From Escherichia coli O157 typing phage 14: a stretch of DNA of 64,000 nucleotides. Each line of letters opens with the position of its first letter. The stretch's first letter is position 1. The stretch lies in the sequence record KP869112; one strand, given 5' to 3'. The position numbers were made by a program, and so were the translations under genes. The notes under the pieces were generated by a model. The model saw nothing but the letters and a program-made list of their open reading frames with translations, ran no database searches and had not been told where the DNA came from. Below, one piece after another: positions 3,187 to 21,521 of the stretch.

Positions 3187-3771
3187 TTAGAGGGTAGGTC
3201 GCTCCGGGAAGAAAATGTCAGGGGCTTTAGATGTATCTATTTCAAGAAGTTTTACCCTGTACATTTTCAAATCTCTGATGTTACGTTTCTGGTCATCAGT
3301 AAGATCATATTCAAGGTCAATCATGTCTTGATAGGCACCAATTCTAGCAGTAGCCCAAGCAAGTTCTGTCTCTATGACACCCTCTGCCTGTTGAACAAAG
3401 AATTCATTATCTGTGACAAATTCATCACCAACTAAACGCAAAGCGTCGTGGTGAAGCATAATGTTTTCTGGTACCTCTTCTTTTTTGGCGATAACCACAC
3501 GAAGACCTGGAGCAGGCCATAAGGCATCAGGTTCTTCTGTAGATGTCTTAAGAATTCCCTTCTCGTCAACAAGTAGGAAGATACAACCCGGATTTTCTTG
3601 TCGCAATGTTCGTGACTGCACATACCAATCGCCATCATCATTACGTAAAAAATACCCAGTGTATGCTGTGTAATCCTCAACCTCTTGAGGGGTCAGCTCC
3701 TTGGTTTCCTTGTTGGTGCGGTATTCGCCAGATCCCGGTTGGTAAAGTTTAAACTCTTGAAGTATTTTCAT
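3187..3771 (-). CDS. tail fibre assembly chaperone (Tfa family)
   Basis: C-terminus DLKMYRVKLLEIDTSKAPDIFFPERP matches the conserved Tfa C-terminal motif of lambda Tfa ([24 protein letters not shown], recalled from memory); sits immediately downstream of fibre gene 3786..4826. Confidence 0.75.
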   Translation of the reverse strand: MKILQEFKLYQPGSGEYRTNKETKELTPQEVEDYTAYTGYFLRNDDGDWYVQSRTLRQENPGCIFLLVDEKGILKTSTEEPDALWPAPGLRVVIAKKEEVPENIMLHHDALRLVGDEFVTDNEFFVQQAEGVIETELAWATARIGAYQDMIDLEYDLTDDQKRNIRDLKMYRVKLLEIDTSKAPDIFFPERPTL

Positions 3772-3785
3772 GCTAGTCCTCCGAT

Positions 3786-4826
3786 CTATGCATAATTAAC
3801 AGTGATCCATTGACCATTTACAAGTTTTTGTAAAGGTCCTGCCCAGTAGGTTGAACCACGCATCTCTTTTTTGTCACCGAAATGCCAGCCTGTGACAACG
3901 TAGCCGTTGCGGATTGGAGATTCAGAAACTCCGTCCACAAGTCTTGCACCGATTCTGATGTCTTGCACACCTGTCTGCGGGATAGTGATCGTTACATCAC
4001 CGTTACCGTTAGCCGTCACTCCATTCACGGAGCGCACCACATTTCTGTTACCGACAACACAGTGCTGGCTTCTTACAACCATACTGTCACAACTTGCACC
4101 ACCATTAACATATACTGACCCAGCCGTCAACTGACTAGCCACATTACAGTTGGTGAATGTTGCTGTATTGCTGATAGTAAGGTTATTGCACCTCATGTTA
4201 TCGACAACTTCAACATTGCCTACCACTTTCAACAGCGCACGATTAGCCGTGATCGCGTTAAGGTACATCAAAGTGAACTCTGGATTAATATCCGGCTGAA
4301 TTGGCTGGAATCTCCAACGAAACGCATCTACCGTAGATGTACCACCATCATCAAACGACCCAGCATTATCACTTAACCCAAAGTCGAGAGTTGTCTTATC
4401 CGGGCCAATAGTTGTCTCTATCCAAGCCTTATCTGTCTCGGCAGCTTTAAAGTTGATACGTTGCAAACCCAATGGGCCTGTCATTGTATCACCTGTAACT
4501 TTTACATACCTGGCGTCTGCCTCTTCCTTAGTAATAATCCCAAGGTTTCTACGGGCAACAGGAATGTTCAAAAGATCACTCAAGTTATTATCACGTACCA
4601 GATAACGGCCTTCTTGAGCGGGGATCTGCTCGTCAGCAATGTATTTTGCCCAAGTTCCGAGCATATTGAAAATATAGTTAAGTTCTTCACATGAGGGCTT
4701 TTGACCAAGATCCCAACCTTTTCTCCACAAATCCTCAATCGGGCGTAGCCTGTTCTGTCTGTGGGTGTTAGGCAGAACCTGATCCTCCTCTGCCCAAATC
4801 TCTAATGGAAAACTAGGTTTTGACAT
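3786..4826 (-). CDS. tail fibre / receptor-binding protein
   Basis: 346 aa, paralog of 1728..2771, followed by a Tfa chaperone gene. Confidence 0.6.
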   Translation of the reverse strand: MSKPSFPLEIWAEEDQVLPNTHRQNRLRPIEDLWRKGWDLGQKPSCEELNYIFNMLGTWAKYIADEQIPAQEGRYLVRDNNLSDLLNIPVARRNLGIITKEEADARYVKVTGDTMTGPLGLQRINFKAAETDKAWIETTIGPDKTTLDFGLSDNAGSFDDGGTSTVDAFRWRFQPIQPDINPEFTLMYLNAITANRALLKVVGNVEVVDNMRCNNLTISNTATFTNCNVASQLTAGSVYVNGGASCDSMVVRSQHCVVGNRNVVRSVNGVTANGNGDVTITIPQTGVQDIRIGARLVDGVSESPIRNGYVVTGWHFGDKKEMRGSTYWAGPLQKLVNGQWITVNYA

Positions 4827-4838
4827 TTTATCTCCTGA

Positions 4839-6911
4839 TTATGAGAAGTCTGGCGGGACAACATCCTCTACATACCCTTTCAGAGCAACCTGCCCCATAT
4901 GAAGCACGGTAGAATCTCTAGCGGTAACAGTGATGCTGTCAGACATTACTTGCGGGTATGCCCACACATACTGTTTTACCTCAGGGTATCTATACTCTAT
5001 AGTTGCCATGTTTCCGCAAATACATCTCCATAAAAATTCTTGGTAATTCCTAGTTGGGTCGTATCCATATACCGGAGCAAGCTCTTTACTAGGAACGAAC
5101 CCTGCAAGGTATTGTATTTCAGACGGTTGCCAACCTAACTTAACGATAGGTATGTTTACAGACTCTTTTGCCTTTTCAATACCTCCCTGCATCACCCAAT
5201 CGTAGCACTCGGTGCAGAAGAAATCAAGAGCACCTGCTTCTTTTTTATATTGGTCGGCAAGGTTCAGCTTTTGCGTAAGCTCGGTTTCCATAATAGTTGG
5301 GAAAAACAGTAAAGCTGTCATCTGAGCTGATGCAGCGTGTGCCTTTATTGCCTTTGAAATAGCCGCAATACGAGCGCCAAGCTTACCACGACAAAATGCT
5401 ACATACTTGTCGTAAACACCGCCAGTTTTAGGATCGTCAATAGTCCCAATATCTAATGCATACTCACCTGTCTCATCATAAAACGCCTGCTTTGTAGGGT
5501 AATCATAAATACAAGGTCTACGAGTATCGGTATTGTACCACCACCACGGTTCACCAACCTGCATAATCACTGGCAGGTTGTTTCTCATAGCGGCTGATGC
5601 AAAATTCTTAAATACTGCAGTAAGGAAATTCATACCCTCTTCAATGGTTGGAGACAGGAGGTAGCTACAGGGTGTATACCCTGTTTTAGCGTAGTTATCG
5701 TTCCAGTCTCTTTGGGTCCATTCCAACGGGCAGGCATCGCTGAAAAGCTCAAAACTTACAGATTGCATAACGTCGAAGTTATGTCGTTTGGCATTGTACA
5801 TAAAATCATCGTGCCATTTATAAGCTGCAGCGTTTAGCGCCCCTGTTCTGTTTATAGACCATTGGGTTCCTGACCATGTGTAGTCATAATAATGACTCAT
5901 ACCAACATAATGGTTTATGGTTCCGGTATAGCCCAGACGCTTGATATTGTTCAACACCCTTAAAGGAGATACGTTCCACATATCGTCATATGCGGTGCAG
6001 ATCCCAACGTCGTGCTCTTTAACCTGAATATTGTTAAGTTGCATCATTTTCCAGCCTGTGTCTGGCTGGAGCAGATCTAGGCGCAACTCACACTCTACAT
6101 TTTCCGTTCTCGGGTCTGTGCTATTACTTACCCAGTCTTTAGGCATAAGCGGTATTAAAATCCTTCTCACCTGTCGAGGATCAACACCCATCATGTTGTT
6201 GTTCTGATCCATCCCGACGCAGTCCTCGAAATCAATATGAATCTCTGCAACATTCTTATCCTCTGAGATGCTGACAGCATATTGAGCTAAAGGAACATAG
6301 ATGATTGTGCCATCAACAAGGTCTACAGTCATAATCATCTTTTCAGGGGTGGAGAAGTTGCTGGCATTGGTTATTGACATTCTGAACCAAAGCTTGGTGT
6401 TTCTCATCTCATAGTGATCATCAAACCCAATACCGAAATGGTCATACTTGTCAACTGTTTCCCAAATGCACCCAGCCATACCTCCATATGTTCTTGACAC
6501 TAAACGGTTAATACAACAGTTGTTATCTGCAACAATACAGGTACTTTCAGTCTGCTGAGTAGTTGTAACCCAATACCTTGGGTGAAACATTCTCTCCTCA
6601 ACAGTATCCCAAGATATCCTGTCAAGATTCTCATCTGAAACTATTGTACATTTCGCCCTTTGTGTTCCAATCATCACCCCTTGAGATTTTGATGAAAACT
6701 CCATAAAGAAGCTTCTTGGCAACCTGTTGGGTAATTTGTCAACAATTTCCACGGGGATCTCAATACTGGTTGCCCCAATTGGGATAGTTACATCGCCCTC
6801 AACATGATTATAATCCCTACCAGGAACGGCAGTATCCTGAACTGTTCGGTAATGAAACTGTGCAGCCATTGTAGAGTAATCACGGTAAGGTTTAAAAACA
6901 GCTGTTGCCAT
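4839..6911 (-). CDS. large baseplate/tail-associated protein, possible carbohydrate-active domain (unverified)
   Basis: 690 aa; embedded between baseplate and fibre genes; Trp/Tyr-rich central region (VIMQVGEPWWWYNTD) suggests a barrel-type enzymatic fold, but no family was recognised with confidence. Confidence 0.4.
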   Translation of the reverse strand: MATAVFKPYRDYSTMAAQFHYRTVQDTAVPGRDYNHVEGDVTIPIGATSIEIPVEIVDKLPNRLPRSFFMEFSSKSQGVMIGTQRAKCTIVSDENLDRISWDTVEERMFHPRYWVTTTQQTESTCIVADNNCCINRLVSRTYGGMAGCIWETVDKYDHFGIGFDDHYEMRNTKLWFRMSITNASNFSTPEKMIMTVDLVDGTIIYVPLAQYAVSISEDKNVAEIHIDFEDCVGMDQNNNMMGVDPRQVRRILIPLMPKDWVSNSTDPRTENVECELRLDLLQPDTGWKMMQLNNIQVKEHDVGICTAYDDMWNVSPLRVLNNIKRLGYTGTINHYVGMSHYYDYTWSGTQWSINRTGALNAAAYKWHDDFMYNAKRHNFDVMQSVSFELFSDACPLEWTQRDWNDNYAKTGYTPCSYLLSPTIEEGMNFLTAVFKNFASAAMRNNLPVIMQVGEPWWWYNTDTRRPCIYDYPTKQAFYDETGEYALDIGTIDDPKTGGVYDKYVAFCRGKLGARIAAISKAIKAHAASAQMTALLFFPTIMETELTQKLNLADQYKKEAGALDFFCTECYDWVMQGGIEKAKESVNIPIVKLGWQPSEIQYLAGFVPSKELAPVYGYDPTRNYQEFLWRCICGNMATIEYRYPEVKQYVWAYPQVMSDSITVTARDSTVLHMGQVALKGYVEDVVPPDFS

Positions 6912-9207: not shown

Positions 9208-12200
9208 TTAGTCGTGAGACTCGTTCCAAGGTCCTTGGAAGCTTGAGTTAGAACGGCTTACCACAACAGTAGGACAGGATATTGCGACCCCTGTTACAGA
9301 AGACGTTGACCATGGTGTGTAGATTTCAACAACAATATCTATGGTTTGTTCACTAAGACCTGTTATCCCTACCGCACACATGCCGTTGTTGTCGTTTCCG
9401 TACTTCTTACCTGCAAGGATTTGATGTCCGGCTATCCAAACGTTGAGCTGGGAGCTGGCAAGAGCACCATTCAGTTTAAAGAAGAATGTTACGTTCTTAC
9501 CCTGACCTGAAACGTTATCTACGTATCTCCACCTCCAACGGCAAACCCTTTGCTGGGAGTTATATACTGGAGCACAATCCCCGTAAGTCCTGTGTGCAAC
9601 AATTGCACCTTCGAACTGGTTAGCACGGATAACAGAAGCTTCTACACGACCACGGAAGGTACCTCCGGTTGCATCTATGGTGCCCCTAAAGCTACCATTA
9701 TTGGCATAAACATCCCCACGGAAGGTACCACTAGTGGCGTTAACTGCCCCTGTGAAGTTACCAGAACTAGCGTTGATGTTGCCTTTCACCCACACATCCA
9801 TAAATTGGGCGTGCCCGTTCTTGTTAATATACCAACCGTATTTATGGTACCCGTTGCCATCGTAGTTGTTTGACGAGATTTCTTGTGCGATCTTGGCAGA
9901 GGAGATCGTGCCATTCTCTATAAAAGCGTCTTTCAAGAACGCTTGGTTGTTCTTGATTGCGAAAGCAAGGGTTGCTGTTCCATTTCCTGGGTTGTATACC
10001 GCAAAATTGTTTGCACTAACCATGAAGTAGGATTGAACTTGGCCTCCAGACCCTTCCATCCCCAACTGAATACCTGCAACATATTTATTCCCTGCGGAGT
10101 CTACCTGTATTTTTGTGCCCCATTGAGCATTTACTTTACCCTCTAAGTCGGTTACAGCCTTAGATGTTGTAGCTACTGCAGCCCTGATCTCAGACACATC
10201 CCCAACATCATCCATGATCTCCTGCTTAGCAACAGCAAGTTCTTGACGAATAGCTGACGCTGTGCCGTTGATAAGGTCCACAGTGGCTTGGTTGGTGCTC
10301 AAGATGCTTGCGTCAAGTTCTGTTCTCTGAGTATTGATCTTACCATCTAGAGTTTTATCTCCGGCTAAATACCCGCTCTCAACTCCCTCTATCTGCTCTA
10401 CCAGTTCACCTTTGGCGGCAACCAATTTCTCATCTAAAGCCTCTGTCTTTTTGTTCAGAAGATCAGTAGTTGCTTTATTGGTTGTCTCAATCAGAGATGC
10501 CAATCTTCCACTTTCAGTGTTCAGATCGTTGGTGAACTTGTTCTGTGCAGCAACAAGTTTCCTATCCAGCGCTGTGATATTGCCATTGACATCCTCAAAC
10601 TTCTGAGTTGTCTCTGTAACTACCGCACCTATTCTGTCTCCAAGTTGCTGGAATGCCTCATCTACCCTACCATCCATGTATTTATTAAGCTCTGTGACAC
10701 GATTTTCAACCTCTTCAATAGAGGAATCCAAAGTGCTCATCAACTCTTTATAAGTTTCTGTCTTTTTGAATTCAGCATCTATCTGAGGCATCAAATCCTC
10801 GATAGAGGTGTAGCAGTGTGCAGCGCATTCTACAAACTGAGAGCTACCAAAAGCGTTTGTGGTTCGAATATACCAATAATAAACCTTATCGTTCTGCAGG
10901 CCTTCAGATGTCCAAGTTGAACCAACACCCATACGGGTGGCGTTTGAAGTAACGGTTGCATCACTGGTGTCTGGCAACCTTGTCATACCAGATGTCCAAA
11001 AGTCATACTGGGTGCTAACACTTGCTAAATCCCTACTATGCGGAATCAAGGTGATAGCAAAGTATCCTTGCTTAACCTCTACAGAAACCGGAGCTTCAGG
11101 TGCCTGAATGTTAAACTCACAGTACGCTTCTGGAGATACACCACCTTTATAGGATGTTGCAACCACGGTTGCTGTGTATGACCCTTTGGTCAAGCCTTCT
11201 ACTCGGACAAACTGCTCAACTGTCTGTGCTGTCCAAACAATCTCTCCGTTCTTTCTTACCTGCACAATATTTTGAGCGTAAGTCCCAACGTTGTCCCAAG
11301 CCAAAACACCGTGAGTTACTTCCCCAGCTTGGAGAACGGAATATCTGAAGTTTTGCGGTTGAGCTACACCAGATGGAGATATTGGAATATCTACATCGCC
11401 AGAATCCGGAAGTTGTCCTGTGGCATCATTCCACTCTTTAGCATCTTGACGAAGTTTTACCTTGACACCACCCTTTTTGGTAAACTCCCATTCAAGAACT
11501 CTCATTTCTTGGCCCACTATACCAATACTTGGGAGGTCCATTGTAACGTAACGACCAGGTTTAAATTTGAAACCTCGCATATTGCAGGTGACTTCAATAA
11601 TCCTGCCAGCTCTGGCACGTCTTAGGAAGATTGCAGAAACACGCTGAGCTTGATAAGGACTGGTAACAAAGCGATAGTCTATATCGATTATCTTTCTTTC
11701 TCCATCCTTCTCTATCCACTCTGGGACAAACACTGATGGAAAATCTGTTTCAGAATACCCTTTGGTAGGACTGGTGAATCTGCCAGTTATTGTGTTGGAT
11801 CTTTTGTCAAATGAGGCTTCCGGATAGATCTTGACCTCACCACAGACACAATCCTCACTCAGTGTCATTGTTGCCGGGCCATAGTATGCACCAACCAGCA
11901 AACCATACTTACCAGCTACATAGCTGAGATCTGCACCACAAGCTTTCAGCATTTCTGCCATAATGCTTGCTGGGGCCTCATCCATGTCAAACTCACCGTT
12001 AATGGTGTAACGTCGCTCACTGGTTCCGTCAGCGTTTTTTACCGCCTCGTCGCATATGTTGGCAGCCTCCTTGAAGGACTCCCAGTTAATGGTTTCGTCA
12101 GGACATTTAAGGTACGTTCTTAAATAGTCTAGGATCACCAAGGCCGCGTTATTGGTATACACCTCTTTACTGATACGAGGATCATAGCATTTTTTACCAA

Positions 12201-12732
12201 CCTTGACAAGTGTAACGTTTGGCAACCCAAAAGGAAACTTGTTAGGGTCAAACCTGAAGCTGGCACGTAGCCAACTGATCCCTCTACCTATCATGTCGGG
12301 TGACCATGATGGGCAGTGTGTACCCATGAAAGGATCAGATGTTTTTCTGTCGTTATGTAGCTCCCACGATACCAGATCTCCATACGAGGAAATAGGATTA
12401 CCGTCGATAAGTATATCTTCTACACCTTCCAGAGGGTGATTGGCAAGAACAATAGCACAATGGAGGGTTCTGTCTCTGTCCTGCTCCAAAAACGCAAGCA
12501 ATCCAGACGTACGTGTCTTACCATACACTACAGAGCAAGGTGCAGCAGAAGATCTGAGAAGCTTTTGTCTATCTTGCTGACTTCTGTAAGATTTGTTGCC
12601 CTCAAAAATCTTATCCAGAGTTCTGGTGGTAACAGTGTTCAGGCTGTCAGCCAGAGCTGCCTTGGATGCGTTCCAGTCATAACTTGAAGATCTTGCAGAA
12701 GCAACGATGTTATCAATCATTGCAATTGGCAT
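9208..12732 (-). CDS. large tail protein, lambda J-like host-specificity / central fibre candidate
   Basis: 1174 aa; beta-rich segments, an extended coiled-coil-like region (residues about 640-860) and a Gly/Asn-rich C-terminus; preceded by three small genes as in lambda L-K-I-J order. Family assignment is by architecture only. Confidence 0.45.
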   Translation of the reverse strand: MPIAMIDNIVASARSSSYDWNASKAALADSLNTVTTRTLDKIFEGNKSYRSQQDRQKLLRSSAAPCSVVYGKTRTSGLLAFLEQDRDRTLHCAIVLANHPLEGVEDILIDGNPISSYGDLVSWELHNDRKTSDPFMGTHCPSWSPDMIGRGISWLRASFRFDPNKFPFGLPNVTLVKVGKKCYDPRISKEVYTNNAALVILDYLRTYLKCPDETINWESFKEAANICDEAVKNADGTSERRYTINGEFDMDEAPASIMAEMLKACGADLSYVAGKYGLLVGAYYGPATMTLSEDCVCGEVKIYPEASFDKRSNTITGRFTSPTKGYSETDFPSVFVPEWIEKDGERKIIDIDYRFVTSPYQAQRVSAIFLRRARAGRIIEVTCNMRGFKFKPGRYVTMDLPSIGIVGQEMRVLEWEFTKKGGVKVKLRQDAKEWNDATGQLPDSGDVDIPISPSGVAQPQNFRYSVLQAGEVTHGVLAWDNVGTYAQNIVQVRKNGEIVWTAQTVEQFVRVEGLTKGSYTATVVATSYKGGVSPEAYCEFNIQAPEAPVSVEVKQGYFAITLIPHSRDLASVSTQYDFWTSGMTRLPDTSDATVTSNATRMGVGSTWTSEGLQNDKVYYWYIRTTNAFGSSQFVECAAHCYTSIEDLMPQIDAEFKKTETYKELMSTLDSSIEEVENRVTELNKYMDGRVDEAFQQLGDRIGAVVTETTQKFEDVNGNITALDRKLVAAQNKFTNDLNTESGRLASLIETTNKATTDLLNKKTEALDEKLVAAKGELVEQIEGVESGYLAGDKTLDGKINTQRTELDASILSTNQATVDLINGTASAIRQELAVAKQEIMDDVGDVSEIRAAVATTSKAVTDLEGKVNAQWGTKIQVDSAGNKYVAGIQLGMEGSGGQVQSYFMVSANNFAVYNPGNGTATLAFAIKNNQAFLKDAFIENGTISSAKIAQEISSNNYDGNGYHKYGWYINKNGHAQFMDVWVKGNINASSGNFTGAVNATSGTFRGDVYANNGSFRGTIDATGGTFRGRVEASVIRANQFEGAIVAHRTYGDCAPVYNSQQRVCRWRWRYVDNVSGQGKNVTFFFKLNGALASSQLNVWIAGHQILAGKKYGNDNNGMCAVGITGLSEQTIDIVVEIYTPWSTSSVTGVAISCPTVVVSRSNSSFQGPWNESHD

Positions 12733-13157
12733 TAATACCTCCAGACATCAACAACGATAGAATCTTTCATGTCGAACATAAAGACCCCTTTATCACCTTT
12801 CGCCCAAATCTGGTTGTTCCAGAACACACCAGCGGTGAGCCCGTTCAGACCTTCGAAAATGACAATATCTCCACGCTGAACCTGTTTAGGAGTATCCAGC
12901 CGAGTCATAAAGAGATCAAAAATAGTAGGCAGGTGTGTAGTTTTGAAACGAAGCATGCACCATCTTTTGCTTTCCAACTCTGTTTTATACGTTCCTTCGA
13001 AGTTGGAAAGAAAATCTGTTCCGTATTGGGCATCAACACACTTAGCCGCAAAGGTGCAACAATCGTGGAATCCCCATTCAAAAGGTATGGTGGCCTCTTC
13101 GTCAAACACTTTCCACAATCTTTCTTGCCAATCCACTAAACGAGGGTGTGTGCTCAT
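12732..13157 (-). CDS. small tail protein (possible NlpC/P60-like or gpK-like; hypothetical)
   Basis: Start reassigned to the ATG at 13155-13157 (RBS GGGAGG, TAATG overlap with upstream stop); motifs FHDCCTF and GDIVIF are reminiscent of Cys peptidases but the catalytic residues are unconfirmed. Confidence 0.35.
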   Translation of the reverse strand: MSTHPRLVDWQERLWKVFDEEATIPFEWGFHDCCTFAAKCVDAQYGTDFLSNFEGTYKTELESKRWCMLRFKTTHLPTIFDLFMTRLDTPKQVQRGDIVIFEGLNGLTAGVFWNNQIWAKGDKGVFMFDMKDSIVVDVWRY

Positions 13158-13723
13158 TAAACCTCCCAAATGATCGGGCGGCTCGCCACCTGATCCACAT
13201 ATTTAAAAAATCTGTCATTATCGTTTCTTGAGCTGTGGCTTTCCTCCGTGTACCGATAAGGAAAACCTCTTAACCAACTATTGAAGATGGAAGAGATGGA
13301 TATGGACAAAGCACTATTCTCCCCTGTCTGAATAGCCATATCTGTTATAAGGCCGTCAAACAAGCCATTAGTTGTGACAGGCAGACCATTCTCCATAGCG
13401 GTAATGTACAACGTGGCACGACAACCGGAATACTCCGTCTTCAGAAGATCACCCACATACTTAGGATCAAACCCGTTCAATGTCGCTACCACAGATCCGA
13501 AGTTGGTGGCATCTTTCTCAGACACAGCAGTTAACGTTGCTGATCCACCTATCCCTATAAAATGTTGCCCCTCAATTACTACAACACCAGTGCCTGAGCA
13601 CACCCTGACAGTTCCTGTCGGTAGCTCCAGCTTTGCAGCAATTAAGATCTCAACACCATCAAGCTCCAGCTTTTCAAGAAATAAATTATCTAATGGCGCT
13701 CTGATCATCTTAGAAATCCTCAA
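13157..13723 (-). CDS. tail protein (hypothetical)
   Basis: 188 aa ORF within the tail module; no recognisable motif. Confidence 0.4.
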   Translation of the reverse strand: MRISKMIRAPLDNLFLEKLELDGVEILIAAKLELPTGTVRVCSGTGVVVIEGQHFIGIGGSATLTAVSEKDATNFGSVVATLNGFDPKYVGDLLKTEYSGCRATLYITAMENGLPVTTNGLFDGLITDMAIQTGENSALSISISSIFNSWLRGFPYRYTEESHSSRNDNDRFFKYVDQVASRPIIWEV

Positions 13724-14300
13724 AGAAGTTGATAACTATATTATCACCTTTTTGCATAGCATCGACTTTTTGCTTAATTTTATAAATATCTCTGATATGA
13801 AACCTACCCTTCGGGGATTGAGTTATTATCTTCATAGTGTCCCCTGCGGCAATAGGTTTTCTAAGTCTTGGAGATATGCTTATAACAGCAGACCCAACAC
13901 CATCGCTACGCACTGGAGCTGTTACCACTTTCAATTCATCATTGACAGATATTTTATCCCCAGCTCTGGCTATGTCTCTGTTTGGCTCCCACCCTACCGT
14001 CTTCAAAAAATCGTCGTTACCAGTAGGCCCAAGGGCGATTGGCTCATTAGCTGTTACCGAGTGACCGTAAGTTTTAATAAGAAAGATGTTTCCATCTTTA
14101 TACACCTGATCAACAAAGCTCTTAAGCTCTAGCAACTGTGACTCGCTGATATTGGAGACCGTCAAAGTGCCTTTCCAGTTAGGTGTGGCATAGGTTACTT
14201 TTTGCGTTTTACCTGTAAACGGACTTTTAAACGTAACAATATCTGCCAGCAGCTCCAATCTAATATCTGGAAGGTATCTGGGCCTTTCCCATAAAAACAT
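13710..14300 (-). CDS. tail protein (hypothetical)
   Basis: 196 aa; RBS GGAGG upstream of the ATG at 14298-14300. Confidence 0.4.
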   Translation of the reverse strand: MFLWERPRYLPDIRLELLADIVTFKSPFTGKTQKVTYATPNWKGTLTVSNISESQLLELKSFVDQVYKDGNIFLIKTYGHSVTANEPIALGPTGNDDFLKTVGWEPNRDIARAGDKISVNDELKVVTAPVRSDGVGSAVISISPRLRKPIAAGDTMKIITQSPKGRFHIRDIYKIKQKVDAMQKGDNIVINFFEDF

Positions 14301-14360: not shown

Positions 14361-14392
14361 TACAAACAAAAAGCCCCCGCCGAAGCGAGGGC
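14361..14392 (-). terminator. rho-independent terminator downstream of the long tail fibre gene
   Basis: Minus-strand hairpin GCCCTCGC-UUCG-GCGGGGGC followed by UUUUUGUUUGU. Confidence 0.6.
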
Positions 14393-14399
14393 AAAACAG

Positions 14400-17300
14400 T
14401 TACTTCAGTTTCTCTTGCAACCCAGTAACAACCTCTGTCAATTTTTTAACCTGCTCCTCAAGGTCGGTTATTTTATCGTCCTGTTCCCTGCAAACCTGGA
14501 CAAGCAAGCCTGTTACAGCTGCGTAATCCACGCTGTAGAATCTTTCCTCTGTTATCAAAGGAGTTCCATCTTGATCAGGGTTTGGGATTTCCTTTCTTTG
14601 CACGAAAGAGCTAACTGCTTCCGGCAGCGCTTCAAGCACTTCTTGTGCTATAACACCTGCATAAGGCATACCGTTCTCTTTAAGAGTGTAAGTATAACCC
14701 TTCATCTTCCGGATAGCTTCTAACGCATCAGGAATAACAGCTATGTTATCTTTCAGATCTCTGTCAGAACTCTGATTGACAGATGTGCAATTCACAGCGC
14801 CGTTTACAGAAAGATATCTTGATTTATCTGGCAAGGTACCGCAATGCCATACCCAATTTGATTGAGACTCGTCAAGAACCTTAAACTCTAACACGTTTGG
14901 ACGATCTCCTGTGCTGCCGTTACCCCAATAATACATATGGGCGGCATTAGCAGGCATGTTGCCACCGTTATTAGTAACATGACTTCCAGAAATATATACC
15001 TTTAACTCTGGGGTTGGTATTTCCCCTTCCGGGGTTGTTCCTCCATACCTGAAGCTAACACCATTACCACCTGTTTGGGTCCACGGGCCCCAAGTGAAGA
15101 CCTGTTTCACCATATTCCCATAACGTGTAAATCTATCGCCATGGTAGGTAATATATTCTTGAACACACCCATTACCGTTATTGGCGTTATTTTGCAACAC
15201 AATAAGTGTTCCGGCCTCATTTACGGGATAATGACGATCATATGTTGCATCATTATTTACAGGCTGATGGTAAATACCTTCCCACAATCCGTGATAGGTG
15301 TTAAGGTCTGAAGAACCAAGACCTTGACCCCTGTGTTGCATAGCCTTATTCCAGGGATGGTGATTACCACCTTCTATAGACCTGGTGTATAAGTTACTTT
15401 GTCTGCCAGCAATCTGGAAAGCGTAGTTTCCCGAGAATCCTACAGATAACCCGCCTACAACCATGGTATCTTGTGGGCCGTTAACATTACCAGCTATTAT
15501 TTTTGACGGGTTGTTAGGCCCAAACTGGTTGTTCCAGTCTGCACCCGTGTGGCATACAAAACCGCCCGGAGCTGAGAAAGTGCCATCTTTGTTGAAGTTG
15601 TAGAATCTATGAGCTGTGCCTACAACATCACGAACAATAACTTGAGCAGCTTCTGAAGTAGATCTGAACTCTGCCTGTCCTTGCAGTCTTGCACCATTAC
15701 CACATTTAGAGGTAAAGGTGTTGTTGATCAGATCCTCTGTTCCTTCCGACGCAGCCTGGAACCCTGCATTAGAGAACAGTGCTTTTCGAGTGGTCTGACT
15801 ACCAGGGCAAAGGTAGTCAATACCGTCTGCCCATAGCTCGACTTTAGGCATATTCATTTTGCTCATCACAGCATAGCGTTCAGCAGTGCCTATATAGTGC
15901 CACTGTGTGCCGCCACCAGTGTAGAACCCTGAAGTACCTTTGAAGTCAACAATAGGTCTGGTATTGGTGTTGTTATCTCCAAGAATAGCGAGATTCAAAT
16001 CTGCTGACTGAAGAGGTGCAACGAACTTAACCCCATCCTGATTGTCTGTTACAGCCCCAACCTGGTAATCTTGCTCTCTGGTAAACACTTCGACAACATT
16101 TCTACTTGCGTATATGCTGACAGGGAAAGCACGAGCCTCTGCATAGAAAGCAACATACTCTTGTTTACCCCTTGTTGGAGCAACCATCCCAAGAAGTGCT
16201 TTTTCATTCTGGTAGAAATTTACTACCCCGTAGAAAGAGTCTCCCCTGTCCGTCCAGCCGCCAGTTCTATAGTGACACTGCAGGGTGGCACAGTTCATAG
16301 GGTCATTTCCAGGTGAAGACCTGGTGACTATGGTAATATCTGTACCTGTCGAAGGGGCGTAATACGGATCTGTTCTAACGATGATTGGGTAGTATTTCCC
16401 ATCTTCCATCCCTGCGGTTCTTGGCAGTGTTAAGAAGTCTTTTACACCTGCTGCTATAGGAACTTTGAACAGATTCTGAGCATCTGCTAAAGTTGTAGCC
16501 CCGGTGCCACCTGCGGCTTGAGGTAGAGGTTCCCACTTGGCCTTCCGGTTGTTATAAACACCCCATTCCAGAGTGCCGTTACCGGATTCGTCCATCCCAC
16601 CATCCCAGATAACCATCTTGGCGGCTTTCTTGGACCCCCAGAAGCCTCTTTCTGCTCCTGAACTACGAATCCACTCTCCAAGTCCCCAGTTTGTCAGCTG
16701 ACCAGTAAGATCCCCAACCTGCATGTATTTAGGGCAGTCTAACACGCCGTCTTCGCGGAGACCTAAATATCTATGGGTTTCAGATCCTTTTGCACCTTTG
16801 TGCAGGTGGATTGTCAACCAAGCCTTATTGTCGTTTCTTACCTCAGAGTAGATCCTATATCCATGCTCAAGGACACCGTCAGCGCTGTATTTGTCCCCGT
16901 TAACAATACCCGAGGCTGACTTAACATCAGCAGAACTTTGAGACAGGTAAATGTGCCCGAAGGTAGGGGTATTTCTAGGACCAAGACCGATGTGCGCTCT
17001 AAAGGTATCATCGTTACGAGGTCTGACCATCGGCTGCCATGCAGCCCACTGGTTTGTGTTGGCCTGATAGGTTCTCAAATACCAAACATCTACGTTAGAG
17101 AATGGGTAGTATTCCTGACGACAACCTGTACCGCCGTTAGCATTGTTCTGCCAAACAATCAAGTGACCAGCACCAGAACCTGCAGGGTAACCATTTGCCT
17201 CAGTTGCATAAGCAGTCATCGGCTGGTAGTATACACCATCCTGATTACCAGTCAAGTTATTGATATTGAAATTTGGCTCAAGGGCTGCACGTTGCTTATA

Positions 17301-18218
17301 GAAAGCCCCGATATTGATACGGACTCCAGCGGCATCTCTGGCCCCTGTACCGCCTTGCTCTATAGCAAGAGGTTGCCACGAGGCTGTTTGTTGGTTCCAC
17401 ATACCCCAACGGCCTGTTGCATCAAGCTGCAAGTACCCTGCCGTGTTTAAATCATCTCCAGCACGGATAACTGTTCTTGTTGGGTTGTTTGCCTCCAGGC
17501 GTTTAAATTCATCACGAAGTGCTATTCTTTTTGTTGTTGCTACACCGTTGGTTACTGCGATGGTATACATGGCTCCGGATGTAGCGCCACGGAAAATACC
17601 ATCAATAGTTGTAGTATCACGACGAGATACCACACCGTTCAGAAATTTTTCACCAGCTGCTACAGAAGGGTAGTTGGTGGTTCTTCCCTCTTCAATAACT
17701 GCAGGACCCACAAAGTTATCAAGGTGAATAACATCACCTACAGTGTGCACCGTACCAAAATCTACACGCTGTGCAAGTGCTTTAGCATCGTTAGCTGTCT
17801 GAACAGTAACATCCATTACATCCTGGACAGACTGCCCTTCGGCTGTCATGATCATAGATGCGCCAATGGTAGATTCCAGCTCCTCCCTTAGGGACGGGTC
17901 AGTATATACCATCCATGCAGCGTCAGTAATCCCACCATCGGAGTACGGTGAAGATAGTGCAGGAACAGTGTGTGGAAATTCGCCTTTCCAACGCAGGTAG
18001 AGATCTTCCTCTTCGAAATAGGCAAAATCCATTGGGCCGTTTAACTTACCACCTTCCTTAAAGGAGATTACATGAGAAACAGTCCCATCCACATGGACAA
18101 CATCGCCAATTTTTACACGACGGGTCAGGTCTGGTTGTTGAACAACCAGGTAATCATCCTCTGTCACTACGGTAGTGGCAGGAAGAGATTCAATTCTGAC
18201 AACTTTAATATCAGCCAT
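14400..18218 (-). CDS. long tail fibre with C-terminal intramolecular chaperone (peptidase S74-like) domain
   Basis: 1272 aa; C-terminus SDRDLKDNIAVIPDALEAIRKMKGYTYTLKENG matches the S74 autoproteolytic chaperone domain seen in T5 L-shaped fibre and endosialidases; N-terminal ~110 aa are shared with 20853..21521. Confidence 0.7.
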   Translation of the reverse strand: MADIKVVRIESLPATTVVTEDDYLVVQQPDLTRRVKIGDVVHVDGTVSHVISFKEGGKLNGPMDFAYFEEEDLYLRWKGEFPHTVPALSSPYSDGGITDAAWMVYTDPSLREELESTIGASMIMTAEGQSVQDVMDVTVQTANDAKALAQRVDFGTVHTVGDVIHLDNFVGPAVIEEGRTTNYPSVAAGEKFLNGVVSRRDTTTIDGIFRGATSGAMYTIAVTNGVATTKRIALRDEFKRLEANNPTRTVIRAGDDLNTAGYLQLDATGRWGMWNQQTASWQPLAIEQGGTGARDAAGVRINIGAFYKQRAALEPNFNINNLTGNQDGVYYQPMTAYATEANGYPAGSGAGHLIVWQNNANGGTGCRQEYYPFSNVDVWYLRTYQANTNQWAAWQPMVRPRNDDTFRAHIGLGPRNTPTFGHIYLSQSSADVKSASGIVNGDKYSADGVLEHGYRIYSEVRNDNKAWLTIHLHKGAKGSETHRYLGLREDGVLDCPKYMQVGDLTGQLTNWGLGEWIRSSGAERGFWGSKKAAKMVIWDGGMDESGNGTLEWGVYNNRKAKWEPLPQAAGGTGATTLADAQNLFKVPIAAGVKDFLTLPRTAGMEDGKYYPIIVRTDPYYAPSTGTDITIVTRSSPGNDPMNCATLQCHYRTGGWTDRGDSFYGVVNFYQNEKALLGMVAPTRGKQEYVAFYAEARAFPVSIYASRNVVEVFTREQDYQVGAVTDNQDGVKFVAPLQSADLNLAILGDNNTNTRPIVDFKGTSGFYTGGGTQWHYIGTAERYAVMSKMNMPKVELWADGIDYLCPGSQTTRKALFSNAGFQAASEGTEDLINNTFTSKCGNGARLQGQAEFRSTSEAAQVIVRDVVGTAHRFYNFNKDGTFSAPGGFVCHTGADWNNQFGPNNPSKIIAGNVNGPQDTMVVGGLSVGFSGNYAFQIAGRQSNLYTRSIEGGNHHPWNKAMQHRGQGLGSSDLNTYHGLWEGIYHQPVNNDATYDRHYPVNEAGTLIVLQNNANNGNGCVQEYITYHGDRFTRYGNMVKQVFTWGPWTQTGGNGVSFRYGGTTPEGEIPTPELKVYISGSHVTNNGGNMPANAAHMYYWGNGSTGDRPNVLEFKVLDESQSNWVWHCGTLPDKSRYLSVNGAVNCTSVNQSSDRDLKDNIAVIPDALEAIRKMKGYTYTLKENGMPYAGVIAQEVLEALPEAVSSFVQRKEIPNPDQDGTPLITEERFYSVDYAAVTGLLVQVCREQDDKITDLEEQVKKLTEVVTGLQEKLK

Positions 18219-18253
18219 TCTTTCTCCTGAAAGGGGGCAAACAGCCCCCTATG

Positions 18254-20851
18254 TTAAAGGTACAATCCACGGTATTGAGCATAAAGGCCCAGACCGCGAA
18301 GGATTTCGCCAGAGTGATAGCCCACCGGATCAGAAACTGCCCAGCAGCCGTTTAAAACATTATCCCCATTGATGAAGTGGTGCTTTTGCAGTAGCTTCAT
18401 ACAGGCTTCTACAACAATGTCTATTTGAGGTATTGTCTCTGAATACCCGCACAGACCTAGCCAGCAGCAACCTGCAAGCCATTCACCTACCACCCACATC
18501 CTGTCCCCTCTGTCTTGATAAGAATATCCCCCAGAGGTGTTAAAGTCTGTAGGCAGATTTCCTGAATGAGATGACTGGAATCTGTTGAGGAACCATGCCC
18601 ATTTCTGGCAGAACAGGAATAATCTTTCATCAACAGGTTCTTTATGTTTCTTGAGCTCATAGATTGTGCGGCACGCAGCAACAAAAGATCTTGACTGGAG
18701 CTTAGAGTTATCTACCATCTCCCACCAACCAGTCAGCCCTTCATTACCTCTCTGCCATACGTAACGCGAGGCAACTGGACCCTCTGTCTTAAATGTATTA
18801 TTATACCAGACTTGAGCGTCATACAGAAAGCCTATTGTATTTGACAATCTATGGCGATCTATGTTTTCTGCACCCATGCAGTATACTGCTGGGTATTGCA
18901 TGCCAGGGTAGGGCCAATTTGGCTTTTCCTCTAAGAGATAGTTTTCCTTATCTATCACCTTTCCGGCAGGGAACACACCCGGTGTGTGCCTGTATGCGCC
19001 TTGCTTGTAGTTTCTGACATAGCAATCACCAACCTTGGCGGTTGATTCTGTCTTGCTTGCCATCCATACGCTAAACCATATTAGATAAGCATCCCTATCT
19101 GCAATATAAAATTGCGGCAGTGTGTTGACGCAATATAGATCAAACAAGCCATTACCTATCTGCCTGTCGCTTAGGCTGAAATCTACAGAGGTGAGCCCTT
19201 TAGGATTAGCAAAGAAAGGTTTAATCTCTTCTTCGGTGTGATGAGGTTGTGTCGGATCTAGTTTGAAATCTCCTAGAGTAAGAGTTTCTGTTATCCATTG
19301 TCCATTAGTGGCATATAGATCAGCATACCATAACCACCTATCTTTGTCAAGAAATTTGACCCTTACCATCTCATCATCTGATCGATAAGTTACTGAGTTT
19401 AAAGAAATCTCTCTCCCAAAATTGAAAGTTACTTTACCTCTTGCTATATTACAACGGGTGAAGTTGTCAGAGTGGTTGTAAATGTCGGTATCGTACTGCA
19501 TACTGACACTCGCGCCACCGCTTACGGCAATGTTTTCCTCTTTAGGTAAGAGATACGGATTACCGTCTTTACCAACCACCTCTACGAAATCAGTAACCTT
19601 GGCAACTATTTCTGTTACCTCTGCCCCTCCAAAAGGAACCCCTATCCTGTACTGTTTTTTGTTATTGTTGCCATCATTAAGGATGAAATGTGGCTGGAAC
19701 AGAACCCCTTCTCCTCCGAAATTCATAACAATTTCAGCATCTCTGCCTATTTTGTATGTAGTCCCTTTTTGAATTATTTCGCAAGGCTGGCGTGCGTTCA
19801 TTCTAAAGTTGATATACCCGTCACTGTCTCTGCTCATGACAGGAACTGTTCCTGCAACAAGACAAGTACCGTCTGTAAACGGTGCCTTAATCAACGTGGT
19901 CTTTCTAAACAGCTTGTCGTAGGCGTTTATATCACTGAAATTAAGCAACTTGTTGTAAGACTGTTTAAATGCGGTGTAATACTTTTCCTCACCTGTCAAG
20001 GTGTAGAGTTGATAACAAGCGTCACACCACATTTCTTCCCCGTCCAACTCTGGGGCCTGATTATCTGCAACCACGTTTATAGGATTTACAATTACAGGGG
20101 ATCCAGCAGGTATCACCGATCCACCCTGCTCTTGAGGTAATCTTACACAATAGGTCACCTTGTGGCTTCCTGTAACACCCTTATCTTGTAATTGGATTGT
20201 GCCGAACTCTATAGACGTATGCCCACTGTCGGCTATGCTCCCGTTAGCCCAATAGCGGTTACCATCCCATGCTATGTACCACTCAACCCACCAACTTAAT
20301 CCGGATGTTGTCCAATCTGGGTTAGCATCTGTGCCACCGTAAACATCAGAGTCTACAGTGTTTCTTCCTAACACACCGTTATACGCTTGGAATGCCTTGT
20401 CCAGGTATTCCCCCCATGTCGGAGATCCAGCTGGGATTTTTCCTCTACCGTTGGTAAAAGACACCACCACATCTTTAAACCCACCGTGTGATGGAACCCC
20501 ATCTGTGGATAGAGGGTAGTGGGACAATCTTTGCATTTTACTTTCTACGGCATATGCACCCAGAAGATGACTATTGTAAGCTTCCCAAGCATCTTTTGCC
20601 CTATCCAGATAGAAATCGCTTTTCGATGCCCTGTATGCTTCAATGTATCCCAGAATCAACACAGCTTGGGACTCATGCATTGCCCAATCGTTATTTATCT
20701 TATTACCTGCCCACCCTGCAGCTATAAGACCATCAGGGTTTACTAGCTTATTTTGTGTAGGTGTGTTGGTAATACCTGTGTTGTTATCGAGGCACTTCCT
20801 GTGCCCCTCAATCATCTGAAATACGTTATCAATGTTGTGTTGAATACGCAT
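18254..20851 (-). CDS. tailspike-like protein with putative polysaccharide-degrading domain; lacks the shared N-terminal anchor
   Basis: 865 aa; own RBS AGGAG; helix-rich Trp-containing segments (WAMHESQAVLILGYIEAY, MWVVGEWLAGCCWLGL) suggest an alpha/alpha-toroid-like enzyme, unverified. Confidence 0.45.
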   Translation of the reverse strand: MRIQHNIDNVFQMIEGHRKCLDNNTGITNTPTQNKLVNPDGLIAAGWAGNKINNDWAMHESQAVLILGYIEAYRASKSDFYLDRAKDAWEAYNSHLLGAYAVESKMQRLSHYPLSTDGVPSHGGFKDVVVSFTNGRGKIPAGSPTWGEYLDKAFQAYNGVLGRNTVDSDVYGGTDANPDWTTSGLSWWVEWYIAWDGNRYWANGSIADSGHTSIEFGTIQLQDKGVTGSHKVTYCVRLPQEQGGSVIPAGSPVIVNPINVVADNQAPELDGEEMWCDACYQLYTLTGEEKYYTAFKQSYNKLLNFSDINAYDKLFRKTTLIKAPFTDGTCLVAGTVPVMSRDSDGYINFRMNARQPCEIIQKGTTYKIGRDAEIVMNFGGEGVLFQPHFILNDGNNNKKQYRIGVPFGGAEVTEIVAKVTDFVEVVGKDGNPYLLPKEENIAVSGGASVSMQYDTDIYNHSDNFTRCNIARGKVTFNFGREISLNSVTYRSDDEMVRVKFLDKDRWLWYADLYATNGQWITETLTLGDFKLDPTQPHHTEEEIKPFFANPKGLTSVDFSLSDRQIGNGLFDLYCVNTLPQFYIADRDAYLIWFSVWMASKTESTAKVGDCYVRNYKQGAYRHTPGVFPAGKVIDKENYLLEEKPNWPYPGMQYPAVYCMGAENIDRHRLSNTIGFLYDAQVWYNNTFKTEGPVASRYVWQRGNEGLTGWWEMVDNSKLQSRSFVAACRTIYELKKHKEPVDERLFLFCQKWAWFLNRFQSSHSGNLPTDFNTSGGYSYQDRGDRMWVVGEWLAGCCWLGLCGYSETIPQIDIVVEACMKLLQKHHFINGDNVLNGCWAVSDPVGYHSGEILRGLGLYAQYRGLYL

Positions 20852-20852
20852 C

Positions 20853-21521
20853 TTAGATAGCTCCTGCGATAATCAGTGCCCCGTACCAAGTTAACCCGTT
20901 GTCGTAGGTTTCCAACTTGAAAATATCTGTTGCACCAGCTGTAAATGTTAGGATAGGATCTCTTCCGTAGGACCATTTAACATTACCAGGCCAATAGACT
21001 TTGTTGCCGCCAGAGGTCTGAGTAATGCATACGGTTATAGTTCTCGCCACCCCTTCAAGACCTTCTGTTTGATTTTCAAAAGAGATTGTGGTATTTGAAG
21101 TTAGTCGAACCTTAAAGGTATCCGCAACTTCAAGATCCATATCAAGCTGACCACCGATAGATCCGTAATCAACTATTCTGCCAGAAGAAGTTGCAGCAAG
21201 CTCACCAAAAACAGACCAGGCGTTTGCAGACACACCCCCAGCACCCTCTACAGTGGAGTCTGGGAGGATTATTTTAGGATAATCCCCGTTCCACGTGTAG
21301 TAGCGCTTAGTTTCTGGATCATAAGCAAAGTCCTTCTTGCTCTTAAGATAACCACCCTCTGTGAAATAGACTATTTTAGTAATGCTGAGATCGTTGACAA
21401 CATCATCAATCTTAGCCTTTCTTGTCCCATCAGTCTGGTTGACAACCAAGAAGTCATCACTCAGGACTGTTTCTGCATCTTCAAGATCTGGAATTGGTAT
21501 TGTAGGATAAGCTACAGCCAT
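20853..21521 (-). CDS. tail fibre/spike adaptor protein carrying the shared N-terminal anchor domain
   Basis: 222 aa; N-terminus (DDFLVVNQTDGTRKAKIDDVV ... FTEGGYLKSKKDFAYDPE) is paralogous to the N-terminus of the long fibre 14400..18218 (DDYLVVQQPDLTRRVKIGDVV ... FKEGGKLNGPMDFAYFEE). Confidence 0.5.
   Translation of the reverse strand: MAVAYPTIPIPDLEDAETVLSDDFLVVNQTDGTRKAKIDDVVNDLSITKIVYFTEGGYLKSKKDFAYDPETKRYYTWNGDYPKIILPDSTVEGAGGVSANAWSVFGELAATSSGRIVDYGSIGGQLDMDLEVADTFKVRLTSNTTISFENQTEGLEGVARTITVCITQTSGGNKVYWPGNVKWSYGRDPILTFTAGATDIFKLETYDNGLTWYGALIIAGAI

Follow-up and report, generated by a model that had tools for sequence, protein, structure and literature searches.

A small knob-bearing tail protein is encoded next to an anchor-less, enzyme-like virion protein in rV5-like and other tailed phages

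Results

Three adjacent tail genes of an rV5-like phage

We analyzed a stretch of 64,000 nucleotides of Escherichia coli O157 typing phage 14 (sequence record KP869112; hereafter the window), and focus here on three consecutive genes that encode a small tail protein of 222 amino acids, an anchor-less virion protein of 865 amino acids and a long fibre of 1272 amino acids (Table 1). A preliminary description, made from the sequence alone, had given the coordinates and lengths of these open reading frames (ORFs) exactly. It proposed that the small protein and the long fibre share an anchor domain, and that the small protein is part of a modular adaptor system, docking the 865-residue protein, seen as an enzyme-like tailspike, onto the baseplate. 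Among the matches listed, the 7122-bp region is 96–98% identical, with 100% coverage, to sequenced records of Vequintavirus (rV5-like myoviruses), including phages nom, AlexBoehm/Bas56, JES2013, rV5 and MaxBurger/Bas54, and coverage is 80% or higher for 115 records. This near-identical DNA, together with gene-for-gene synteny in the compared members, places the phage in Vequintavirus.

The three proteins correspond to rV5 gp43 (222 residues; bas54_0025 in Bas54), gp42 (865 residues; bas54_0026) and gp41 (1272 residues; bas54_0027), and we use the rV5 names below. All three were detected by mass spectrometry in rV5 virions (PMC3606486), including gp42, on whose association with the virion the preliminary description had made its proposal depend. 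At the gp43/gp42 junction, the TAA stop codon (20855–20853) is followed by a single G and then by the ATG at 20851. As had been described, the gp42 gene starts 1 nt past the gp43 stop with a ribosome-binding site of its own (AGGAG), and its product carries no anchor that BLASTP or hidden Markov models (HMMs) could detect. The three genes are best explained as one late transcription unit encoding peripheral baseplate appendages.

Table 1. Features of the gp43-gp42-gp41 region, in window positions.
Feature	Position	Strand	Basis or remark
222-aa small tail protein gene (gp43)	20853..21521	-	ORF; plug, Tail_spike_N and C-terminal knob
Plug, residues 1-45 of the 222-aa protein	21387..21521	-	BLASTP and ~50-residue HMM
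Tail_spike_N (PF18668), residues ~46-105 of the 222-aa protein	21207..21386	-	Pfam
C-terminal knob, residues ~113-221 of the 222-aa protein	20859..21185	-	Proposed docking domain
AGGAG ribosome-binding site of the 865-aa gene	20861..20865	-	Inside the 3' end of the 222-aa gene; ATG (20851) lies 9 nt downstream
865-aa anchor-less virion protein gene (gp42, phi92 gp141 family)	18254..20851	-	ORF
GC-rich hairpin separating the 865-aa and 1272-aa genes	18233..18250	-	No long T tract; RNAfold -15.1 kcal/mol
1272-aa long fibre gene (gp41)	14400..18218	-	ORF
Plug and Tail_spike_N of the long fibre, residues 1-105	17904..18218	-	BLASTP, Pfam, plug HMM; paralogous to the 222-aa protein
Peptidase_S74 chaperone domain, residues 1151-1202 of gp41	14613..14768	-	Pfam; Ser1151 codon 14766-14768
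Terminator-like hairpin with T run, directly past the 1272-aa gene	14373..14392	-	Terminator scan, RNAfold; closes the three-gene unit

gp43 carries a shared N-terminus and an unannotated knob

The paralogy that the preliminary description had claimed for the N-termini of gp43 and gp41 is supported by alignment statistics. BLASTP aligned residues 8–105 of gp43 with residues 7–105 of gp41 (38% identity, 55% positives, one gap, E-value 4e-18), and the Smith-Waterman score of the two N-termini was 175, as compared to 27.8 ± 5.1 (maximum 51) for 2000 shuffles (z = 29). The Tail_spike_N domain (PF18668) is present in both proteins, at residues 51–105 of gp43 (41.0 bits, E 2e-10) and residues 46–103 of gp41 (41.1 bits), in each case above the gathering threshold of 25 bits. 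PDB sequence matches of the gp43 domain were the N-terminal parts of CBA120 TSP1, TSP3 and TSP4 and of G7C gp63.1, among others. The likeness between gp43 and gp41 in BLASTP extends over approximately 45 residues ahead of Tail_spike_N, a segment that we call the plug. A plug HMM of approximately 50 residues was built on 11 N-termini, among them those of both window proteins and of the small proteins of phages ESCO13 and SPFM16; its matches to the window, ESCO13 and SPFM16 proteins are thus by construction, and its sole independent match is the N-terminus of phi92 EndoN92 (gp143; E 2e-6; locus L014, 4765–7521).

The C-terminal half of gp43 had not been noticed in the preliminary description. 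In a structure model calculated from a 21-row alignment, residues 116–221 form a beta-sandwich, here named the knob, with a predicted local distance difference test score (pLDDT) of approximately 80, while the N-terminus was modelled poorly. The knob is covered by no Pfam or NCBIfam model. The small proteins from all compared loci end in this domain of approximately 105 residues, which bears the motif Q.tGaNKv.WP..VKW..G..P.L....G..D......D.G.tW.G. In gp43, the conserved face of the knob comprises Q168, G171, N173, W183, P189, D207, G209, W212 and G214. The whole protein is matched end to end by phrog_7760 and is 98–100% identical across Vequintavirus phages.

When the whole gp43 model was compared to known structures with Foldseek, the Pa223 capsid spike was the only match with an E-value of 0.001 or better (E 7e-4). 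The structural matches are modest and, being those of the whole protein, may stem in part from Tail_spike_N rather than from the knob. Chain 9cuy_i of the phiTE baseplate was rejected as a match, the Foldseek result being weak (E 0.29) and the phiTE paper placing no homologue of either gp43 or gp42.

gp42 is anchor-less and is predicted to have an (alpha/alpha)6 core

gp42 shows no similarity to gp43 (best E 1.5 in BLASTP), is matched neither by the N-terminal HMM nor by the knob HMM, has no PF18668 match, and has no sequence match in Pfam, NCBIfam or the PDB. The one family to match it is a PHROG named 'tail protein', whose profile has 113 additional N-terminal positions. Word-indexed homologue searches gave only 6 and 4 relatives, and the counts reported here come from tblastn and from an exhaustive comparison by HMMER, in which 1.8 billion cluster representatives yielded 92 relatives. 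Most of these 92 family representatives start at the same point as the window protein and a few carry N-terminal extensions; the family is usually without an anchor.

The AlphaFold2 model of gp42, built on an alignment of 6 sequences, is moderate in quality, with a mean pLDDT of 65. It contains helical hairpins at residues 59–97, 269–318, 663–687, 715–761, 782–824 and 843–862, that is, the six hairpins and approximately 12 helices of a six-hairpin fold, and beta-rich insertions at approximately 108–247 and 330–613. The core of gp42 is thus predicted, with the confidence that such a model allows, to be a six-hairpin (alpha/alpha)6 glycosidase-like barrel. The model resembles (alpha/alpha)6 enzymes of the glycoside hydrolase (GH) families GH48, GH105, GH88, GH76 and GH8 and AGE/cellobiose 2-epimerase, at 8–14% sequence identity; unlike in these enzymes, the predicted barrel is broken by approximately 140 and 280 residues of beta structure, and the protein is a virion component. 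A profile built from 24 family sequences gave weak matches in the PDB (best E 0.0036), all of them to single hairpins of (alpha/alpha)6 enzymes. gp42 could be assigned to no specific family (GH8, GH48, GH76, GH88, GH105 and others), nor could catalytic residues be assigned. Neither the parallel beta-helix nor the N-terminal particle-binding domain of a beta-helix tailspike was found. Of the enzyme-like tailspike of the preliminary description, the enzyme-like character therefore stands, but the core is modelled as an (alpha/alpha)6 barrel instead of a beta-helix.

In relatives down to 23–25% identity, E60, Q62, D270, E272, W274, W699, R721 and E849 are invariant or nearly so, and several of them map to predicted barrel helices or to where such helices begin, a position compatible with a pocket, active or binding, at an end of the modelled barrel. 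Earlier HHpred-type work had led to the names 'glycosidase' or 'hydrolase' for phi92 gp141 and S144 ORF17, and the S144 authors noted that the protein resembles neither a spike nor a fibre. Most likely, gp42 would bind or cleave a conserved surface glycan. It could instead be a carbohydrate-binding or structural (alpha/alpha)6 scaffold that forms a bulky distal head, on the knob or elsewhere, and is no enzyme. Epimerases, terpene cyclases and other non-hydrolytic proteins indeed have the same fold; no curated glycoside hydrolase family matches gp42, the profile matches in the PDB go no further than single hairpins at E 0.0036 or above, and the phage can do without the gene on E. coli K-12. The conservation of acidic and aromatic residues at such low identity, several in a pocket-like arrangement at predicted barrel helices, argues against a mere scaffold, as do the glycosidase and hydrolase predictions for phi92 gp141 and S144 ORF17, and we consider this alternative rather unlikely.

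The knob stays with the enzyme gene while the anchor changes

In a tblastn search of 50,697 phage records, gp43 found matches in 535 records, mainly via its C-terminal half, and gp42 in 524. The two sets have near-equal genus counts, and the matches adjoin each other in the same order. Knob carriers and gp42-like proteins (called the enzyme below, after the predicted fold) measure 157 and 958 residues in Phapecoctavirus ESCO13, 207 and 985 in Rosemountvirus BP63, 259 and 967 in Crifsvirus A24, 325 and 949 in the lambda-like siphovirus KLB28, 270 and 937 in the T7-like Aeromonas phage Atoyac10, and 157 (annotated 'Phi92_gp140') and 1005 in the SPN3US-like jumbo phage SPFM16. The Atoyac10 carrier has a T7 gp17-type N domain and is the sole annotated T7-type fibre gene in the approximately 10.7 kb examined; the enzyme gene comes next.

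The pairing was counted in 80 additional IMG/VR loci, fetched with the enzyme family profile, and in the earlier loci, all scanned with the knob and enzyme HMMs; 82 loci had enough sequence upstream of the enzyme to be evaluated. In 73 of the 82, a knob ends 5–56 nt ahead of the start of the enzyme alignment, on the same strand, although this fraction overstates the number of independent events because many loci are close relatives of one another. Paired loci span myo-, sipho-, podo- and jumbo phages as well as prophages. The region N-terminal to the knob belongs to at least 11 unrelated classes, which include PF03906 (T7 fibre N), PF08400 (lambda Stf N), several coiled coils, the rV5/phi92 plug, and a major-tail-protein-like N-terminus (phrog_158) followed by fibre repeats. 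Because the adjacency holds in 73 of 82 loci and across at least 11 carrier classes, the region N-terminal to the knob has been exchanged repeatedly by recombination, with the knob and the enzyme gene hardly ever parted. The modular adaptor of the preliminary description is borne out in so far as adaptor and payload are paired and N-termini are exchanged; the likely docking element, however, is the C-terminal knob, and the shared N-terminus is the anchor.

Carriers of the phrog_158 class are found in 33 loci; in the example locus L025 (2310–6850), the carrier has 560 residues, and the enzyme may be displayed from a tail-tube-like protein. In L025, the carrier and enzyme genes lie just before ORFs of 158, 106 and 753 residues, whose sizes and order are like those of tail chaperones and tape measure. 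In Salmonella phage BP63 (L006, 5336–8916), the pair is located between the head-tail connector (neck) genes and the sheath gene, outside the baseplate cluster, and the Rosemountvirus appendage may be located at the neck.

Loci without a knob, fusions and other neighbours of the knob

The nine loci that lack an upstream knob (L070, L079, L080, L083, L085, L086 and L091–L093) share one geometry, which was checked in L070. This P2-like prophage (3458–6751) has no knob gene; its enzyme continues in frame from a full-length baseplate protein gpI (PF09684, E 5e-52). Thus, where the knob is missing, the enzyme would be covalently joined to a baseplate protein, as judged from the checked case. A 554-aa ORF follows the fusion, at the place where P2-like phages encode a tail fibre.

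Three database proteins, in which a gene-calling or assembly artefact is possible, join these modules in other ways. In P0037, one ORF combines DUF7941, a knob match at residues 152–249 (E 1.5e-4) and the enzyme. P0029 consists of the enzyme followed by N4 gp65-type non-contractile tail-sheath (NCTSP) domains (PF23844, PF23845), and P0070 is a 293-aa chimera of approximately 190 N-terminal residues of the enzyme and a knob. The N-terminal extensions of P0029, P0040 and P0019 have no significant match to the knob HMM or to Tail_spike_N; pairwise BLAST likewise showed neither knob nor anchor at a significant level in P0029 and P0040, and in P0029 it gave a stretch just ahead of the enzyme at E 1.7, which is suggestive only and where the knob HMM is blank.

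Conversely, three carriers found with the knob profile were examined, and two of them are followed not by the enzyme but by beta-propeller-like proteins of 346 and 369 residues; the third runs off its contig. In these two loci (L097, 5001–6982, and L096, 907–3158), the knob ends a fibre protein and the following protein has TolB/WD40-like repeats; one of the two carriers has a T7 fibre N domain and lies in a 44-kb T7-like contig. The TolB/WD40-like proteins may be alternative payloads for the knob. Since two of three carriers precede such proteins, the knob is not specific to the enzyme.

gp43 is essential in Bas54 and gp42 is not

Transposon sequencing of Bas54 (HIDEN-SEQ; bioRxiv 10.1101/2025.11.20.689424, Extended Data Table 8) classed bas54_0025, the gp43 gene, as Essential (7 of 47 TA sites hit), and bas54_0026 and bas54_0027 as Intermediate (94 of 189 and 154 of 238 TA sites, respectively); the insertions in bas54_0026 include some near its 5' end. 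A polar effect as the source of gp43 essentiality is ruled out by insertions tolerated in all six downstream genes. With gp43 essential, gp42 dispensable and no polarity, the small protein has a structural role beyond carrying the enzyme. The docking function assigned to it in the preliminary description agrees with its pairing with the enzyme, but its role must be wider.

The long fibre and neighbouring genes

gp41 matches phrog_6578 and, as previously described, ends in an S74-type chaperone domain (PF13884, residues 1151–1202, 52.1 bits for a gathering threshold of 22, E 8e-14). Its SDRDLK motif starts at residue 1151 and places Ser1151 and Lys1156 five residues apart, which we take to be the Ser-Lys spacing of the autoproteolytic dyad of K1F endosialidase. 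Since gp41 and EndoN92 (gp143) of phi92 both start with the plug and finish with an S74 chaperone domain, gp41 is, by its domain sequence, the counterpart of this endosialidase. RBPseg reported no density for the S74 domain of an S74-bearing fibre of Bas54 that may be the bas54_0027 orthologue.

The terminator scan made no call at the hairpin between the gp42 and gp41 genes. The hairpin past gp41 has 8 pairs, 7 of them G-C, and a TTTTTGTTTG tail, with an RNAfold energy of -16.9 kcal/mol. Taken together, the two hairpins hint at attenuated read-through into the long-fibre gene.

On the minus strand, the three genes are preceded by genes for a hub (334 aa), a central spike (225 aa, with a gp138-type N domain) and a sheath-initiator-like protein (238 aa), and are followed by a lambda-like tail-tip module and then by the wedge genes. 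The module (9208–14300, minus strand) is of siphovirus type, inside the baseplate cluster of a contractile-tailed phage; its J-like protein (1174 aa) contains the domains Phage_Tail_Tip and Ig_J, the protein in the K position (145 aa) is annotated in AlexBoehm as a 'cell wall hydrolase', and the two remaining products are a protein of 188 aa and a 'distal tail protein' of 196 aa. The Bas54 orthologues of the module, bas54_0028–0031, are Non-essential or Intermediate on K-12 in the HIDEN-SEQ data (bioRxiv 10.1101/2025.11.20.689424).

We note that approximately 18–23 GenBank records labelled 'Campylobacter phage' (MG0656xx, host Campylobacter jejuni) match window positions 14400–21521; among the matches listed, they show approximately 97% DNA identity and 99–100% identity in the 222-aa and 865-aa proteins. 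These labels look like a mislabelling or contamination of the data set.

Discussion

The genes described here encode known virion proteins of well-studied phages; what is new is the knob and the conserved knob-enzyme cassette. We propose that the 222-aa stub, like the 1272-aa fibre, would sit on the baseplate or the fibre network by means of the plug and Tail_spike_N. The 222-aa protein would be a short stub, probably trimeric, whose beta-sandwich knob would act as a socket for the separately translated, anchor-less 865-aa protein, itself probably made by coupled translation from the message of the 222-aa gene. The enzyme would act on or bind a conserved surface glycan, and would be an accessory on E. 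coli K-12. The knob and enzyme genes would move as a cassette between all tail types, only the part N-terminal to the knob being swapped. In Vequintavirus, the primary receptor is the NGR glycan, recognized via another fibre (phi92 gp142/rV5 gp34).

The direct counterparts of rV5 gp43, gp42 and gp41 are gp140, gp141 and gp143 of phi92 (Justusliebigvirus). The gp140-type protein, of 157 aa in the ESCO13 and SPFM16 loci, is the knob carrier; gp141 (958 aa) is listed as a 'glycosidase' and among the tail fibre and spike proteins of the phage; and EndoN92, like gp41, begins with the plug motif and also contains an S74 chaperone domain. The rV5-like knob carrier differs from the phi92 type by its additional Tail_spike_N domain. 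The published accounts consulted have taken gp140 and gp141 as separate fibre candidates or left them unplaced. Indeed, cryo-electron microscopy (cryo-EM) of phi92 (2026), phiTE (2025) and Bas54/Bas49 (2025) left peripheral densities over, among them fibre II of phi92 and a density joined to the TC8 head in Bas54, and did not place gp43- or gp42-type proteins; in the 2026 phi92 work, gp140 could not be fitted and gp141 was not among the fibre candidates. In the literature searched, which was mostly outside subscription journals, we found no description of the pair as adaptor and payload or as a cassette.

The arrangement is reminiscent of that of K1E/K1-5/SP6-type podoviruses, where a small protein with a virion-binding N-terminus carries a separate enzyme without a particle-binding domain (PMC13450770). 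Both features are found here: the carriers have virion-binding N-termini (PF03906, PF08400, PF18668 or major-tail-protein-like, and a plug shared with the long fibre and EndoN92), and the payload is separately encoded and lacks a particle-binding domain. The present system differs from these known adaptors in its docking domain, an unannotated beta-sandwich knob, in its payload, a predicted (alpha/alpha)6 protein instead of a beta-helix or beta-propeller tailspike, and in its spread, since one cassette occurs on myo-, sipho-, podo- and jumbo phage tails. In the branched complexes of CBA120 (TSP1–4) and G7C (gp66/gp63.1), a carrier with a virion-binding N-terminus also holds a separately encoded enzyme, but there the hubs are large tailspikes of several domains and no spike is without N-terminal attachment domains of its own, whereas the hub here is a stub of 157–560 aa and its payload usually lacks such a domain; the structural likeness to these complexes is modest and is that of the whole model. 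The capsid spike gp52 of Pa223, to which the phi92 authors likened gp140, resembles gp43 in its short N-terminal attachment segment and C-terminal (TNF-like) knob, and the Pa223 fibre is trimeric; it differs in its location on the capsid, its triple beta-helix shaft and the absence of a known partner protein, and the two share 12% identity.

This last comparison bears on a different explanation of the locus, in which the 222-aa protein is an independent short fibre or structural protein with the knob as its own distal head, serving in receptor binding or structure, and the enzyme attaches elsewhere, to the wedge, the 1272-aa fibre or another fibre; adjacency of the two genes would then reflect co-regulation or assembly order, not contact. 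Several observations speak for it and weigh against a knob that mounts the enzyme: of the two genes, only that of the 222-aa protein is essential, the best structural match of the gp43 model has a free distal knob, other genes lie downstream in two of the three knob-profile carriers, and the P2 gpI fusion shows that the enzyme can be anchored without a knob. What this explanation fails to account for is that the knob, and not the N-terminal anchor, stays with the enzyme gene, in all tail morphotypes and with 11 or more types of anchor. It also provides no route by which an anchor-less enzyme with a conserved N-terminus would reach T7-like, lambda-like, N4-like and myovirus tails, which have no other component in common. 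In Atoyac10, the enzyme gene follows the only annotated T7-type fibre gene of the region, and in P0037 knob and enzyme occur in one ORF. We therefore regard an independent fibre as unlikely, and favour, with moderate confidence, a knob that mounts the enzyme through direct contact as an adaptor-plus-payload pair.

A third explanation, the recent split of one ancestral tailspike gene with the 222-aa protein as its detached N-terminus, could draw on the 1-nt gap, on the 113 extra N-terminal positions of the PHROG profile and on the extensions of a few family members, but is excluded as a recent event by the common start of most of the 92 representatives, the usual lack of an anchor in the family and the recurrence of the two-gene form in phages with nothing else in common; moreover, the 222-aa protein ends in a complete domain of its own that is widely conserved and, of the extensions examined, that of P0037 alone is knob-like, which makes a split highly improbable.

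The occurrence of beta-propeller-like proteins behind the knob, a point against a knob that exists for the enzyme, fits equally well a knob that is a general socket. We put forward tentatively that the knob may be such a socket, horizontally portable, for separately encoded distal modules that are usually a conserved six-hairpin, glycan-active enzyme and sometimes a beta-propeller-like protein; it would serve phages of every tail type and, in one group of prophages, apparently a tail-tube-like protein. A swap of the segment ahead of the knob, a few dozen to several hundred residues long, would then suffice to move an enzyme between unrelated virions, and the knob would be an unrecognised standard connector of the phage receptor-binding machinery and a handle for its engineering.

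Few coliphages are isolated as often as those of the rV5-like and phi92-like groups, which are used in phage therapy and biocontrol, and the assignment of genes to fibres is incomplete in both groups (Maffei 2021; the phi92 2026 and phiTE 2025 structures). The knob-enzyme pairing, if true, puts two such proteins on one appendage. It would also explain how an anchor-less enzyme of approximately 100 kDa is carried on T7-like, lambda-like, N4-like, P2-like and jumbo myovirus tails, and would make available a small and defined connector with which modules for receptor binding or glycan degradation could be exchanged from phage to phage.

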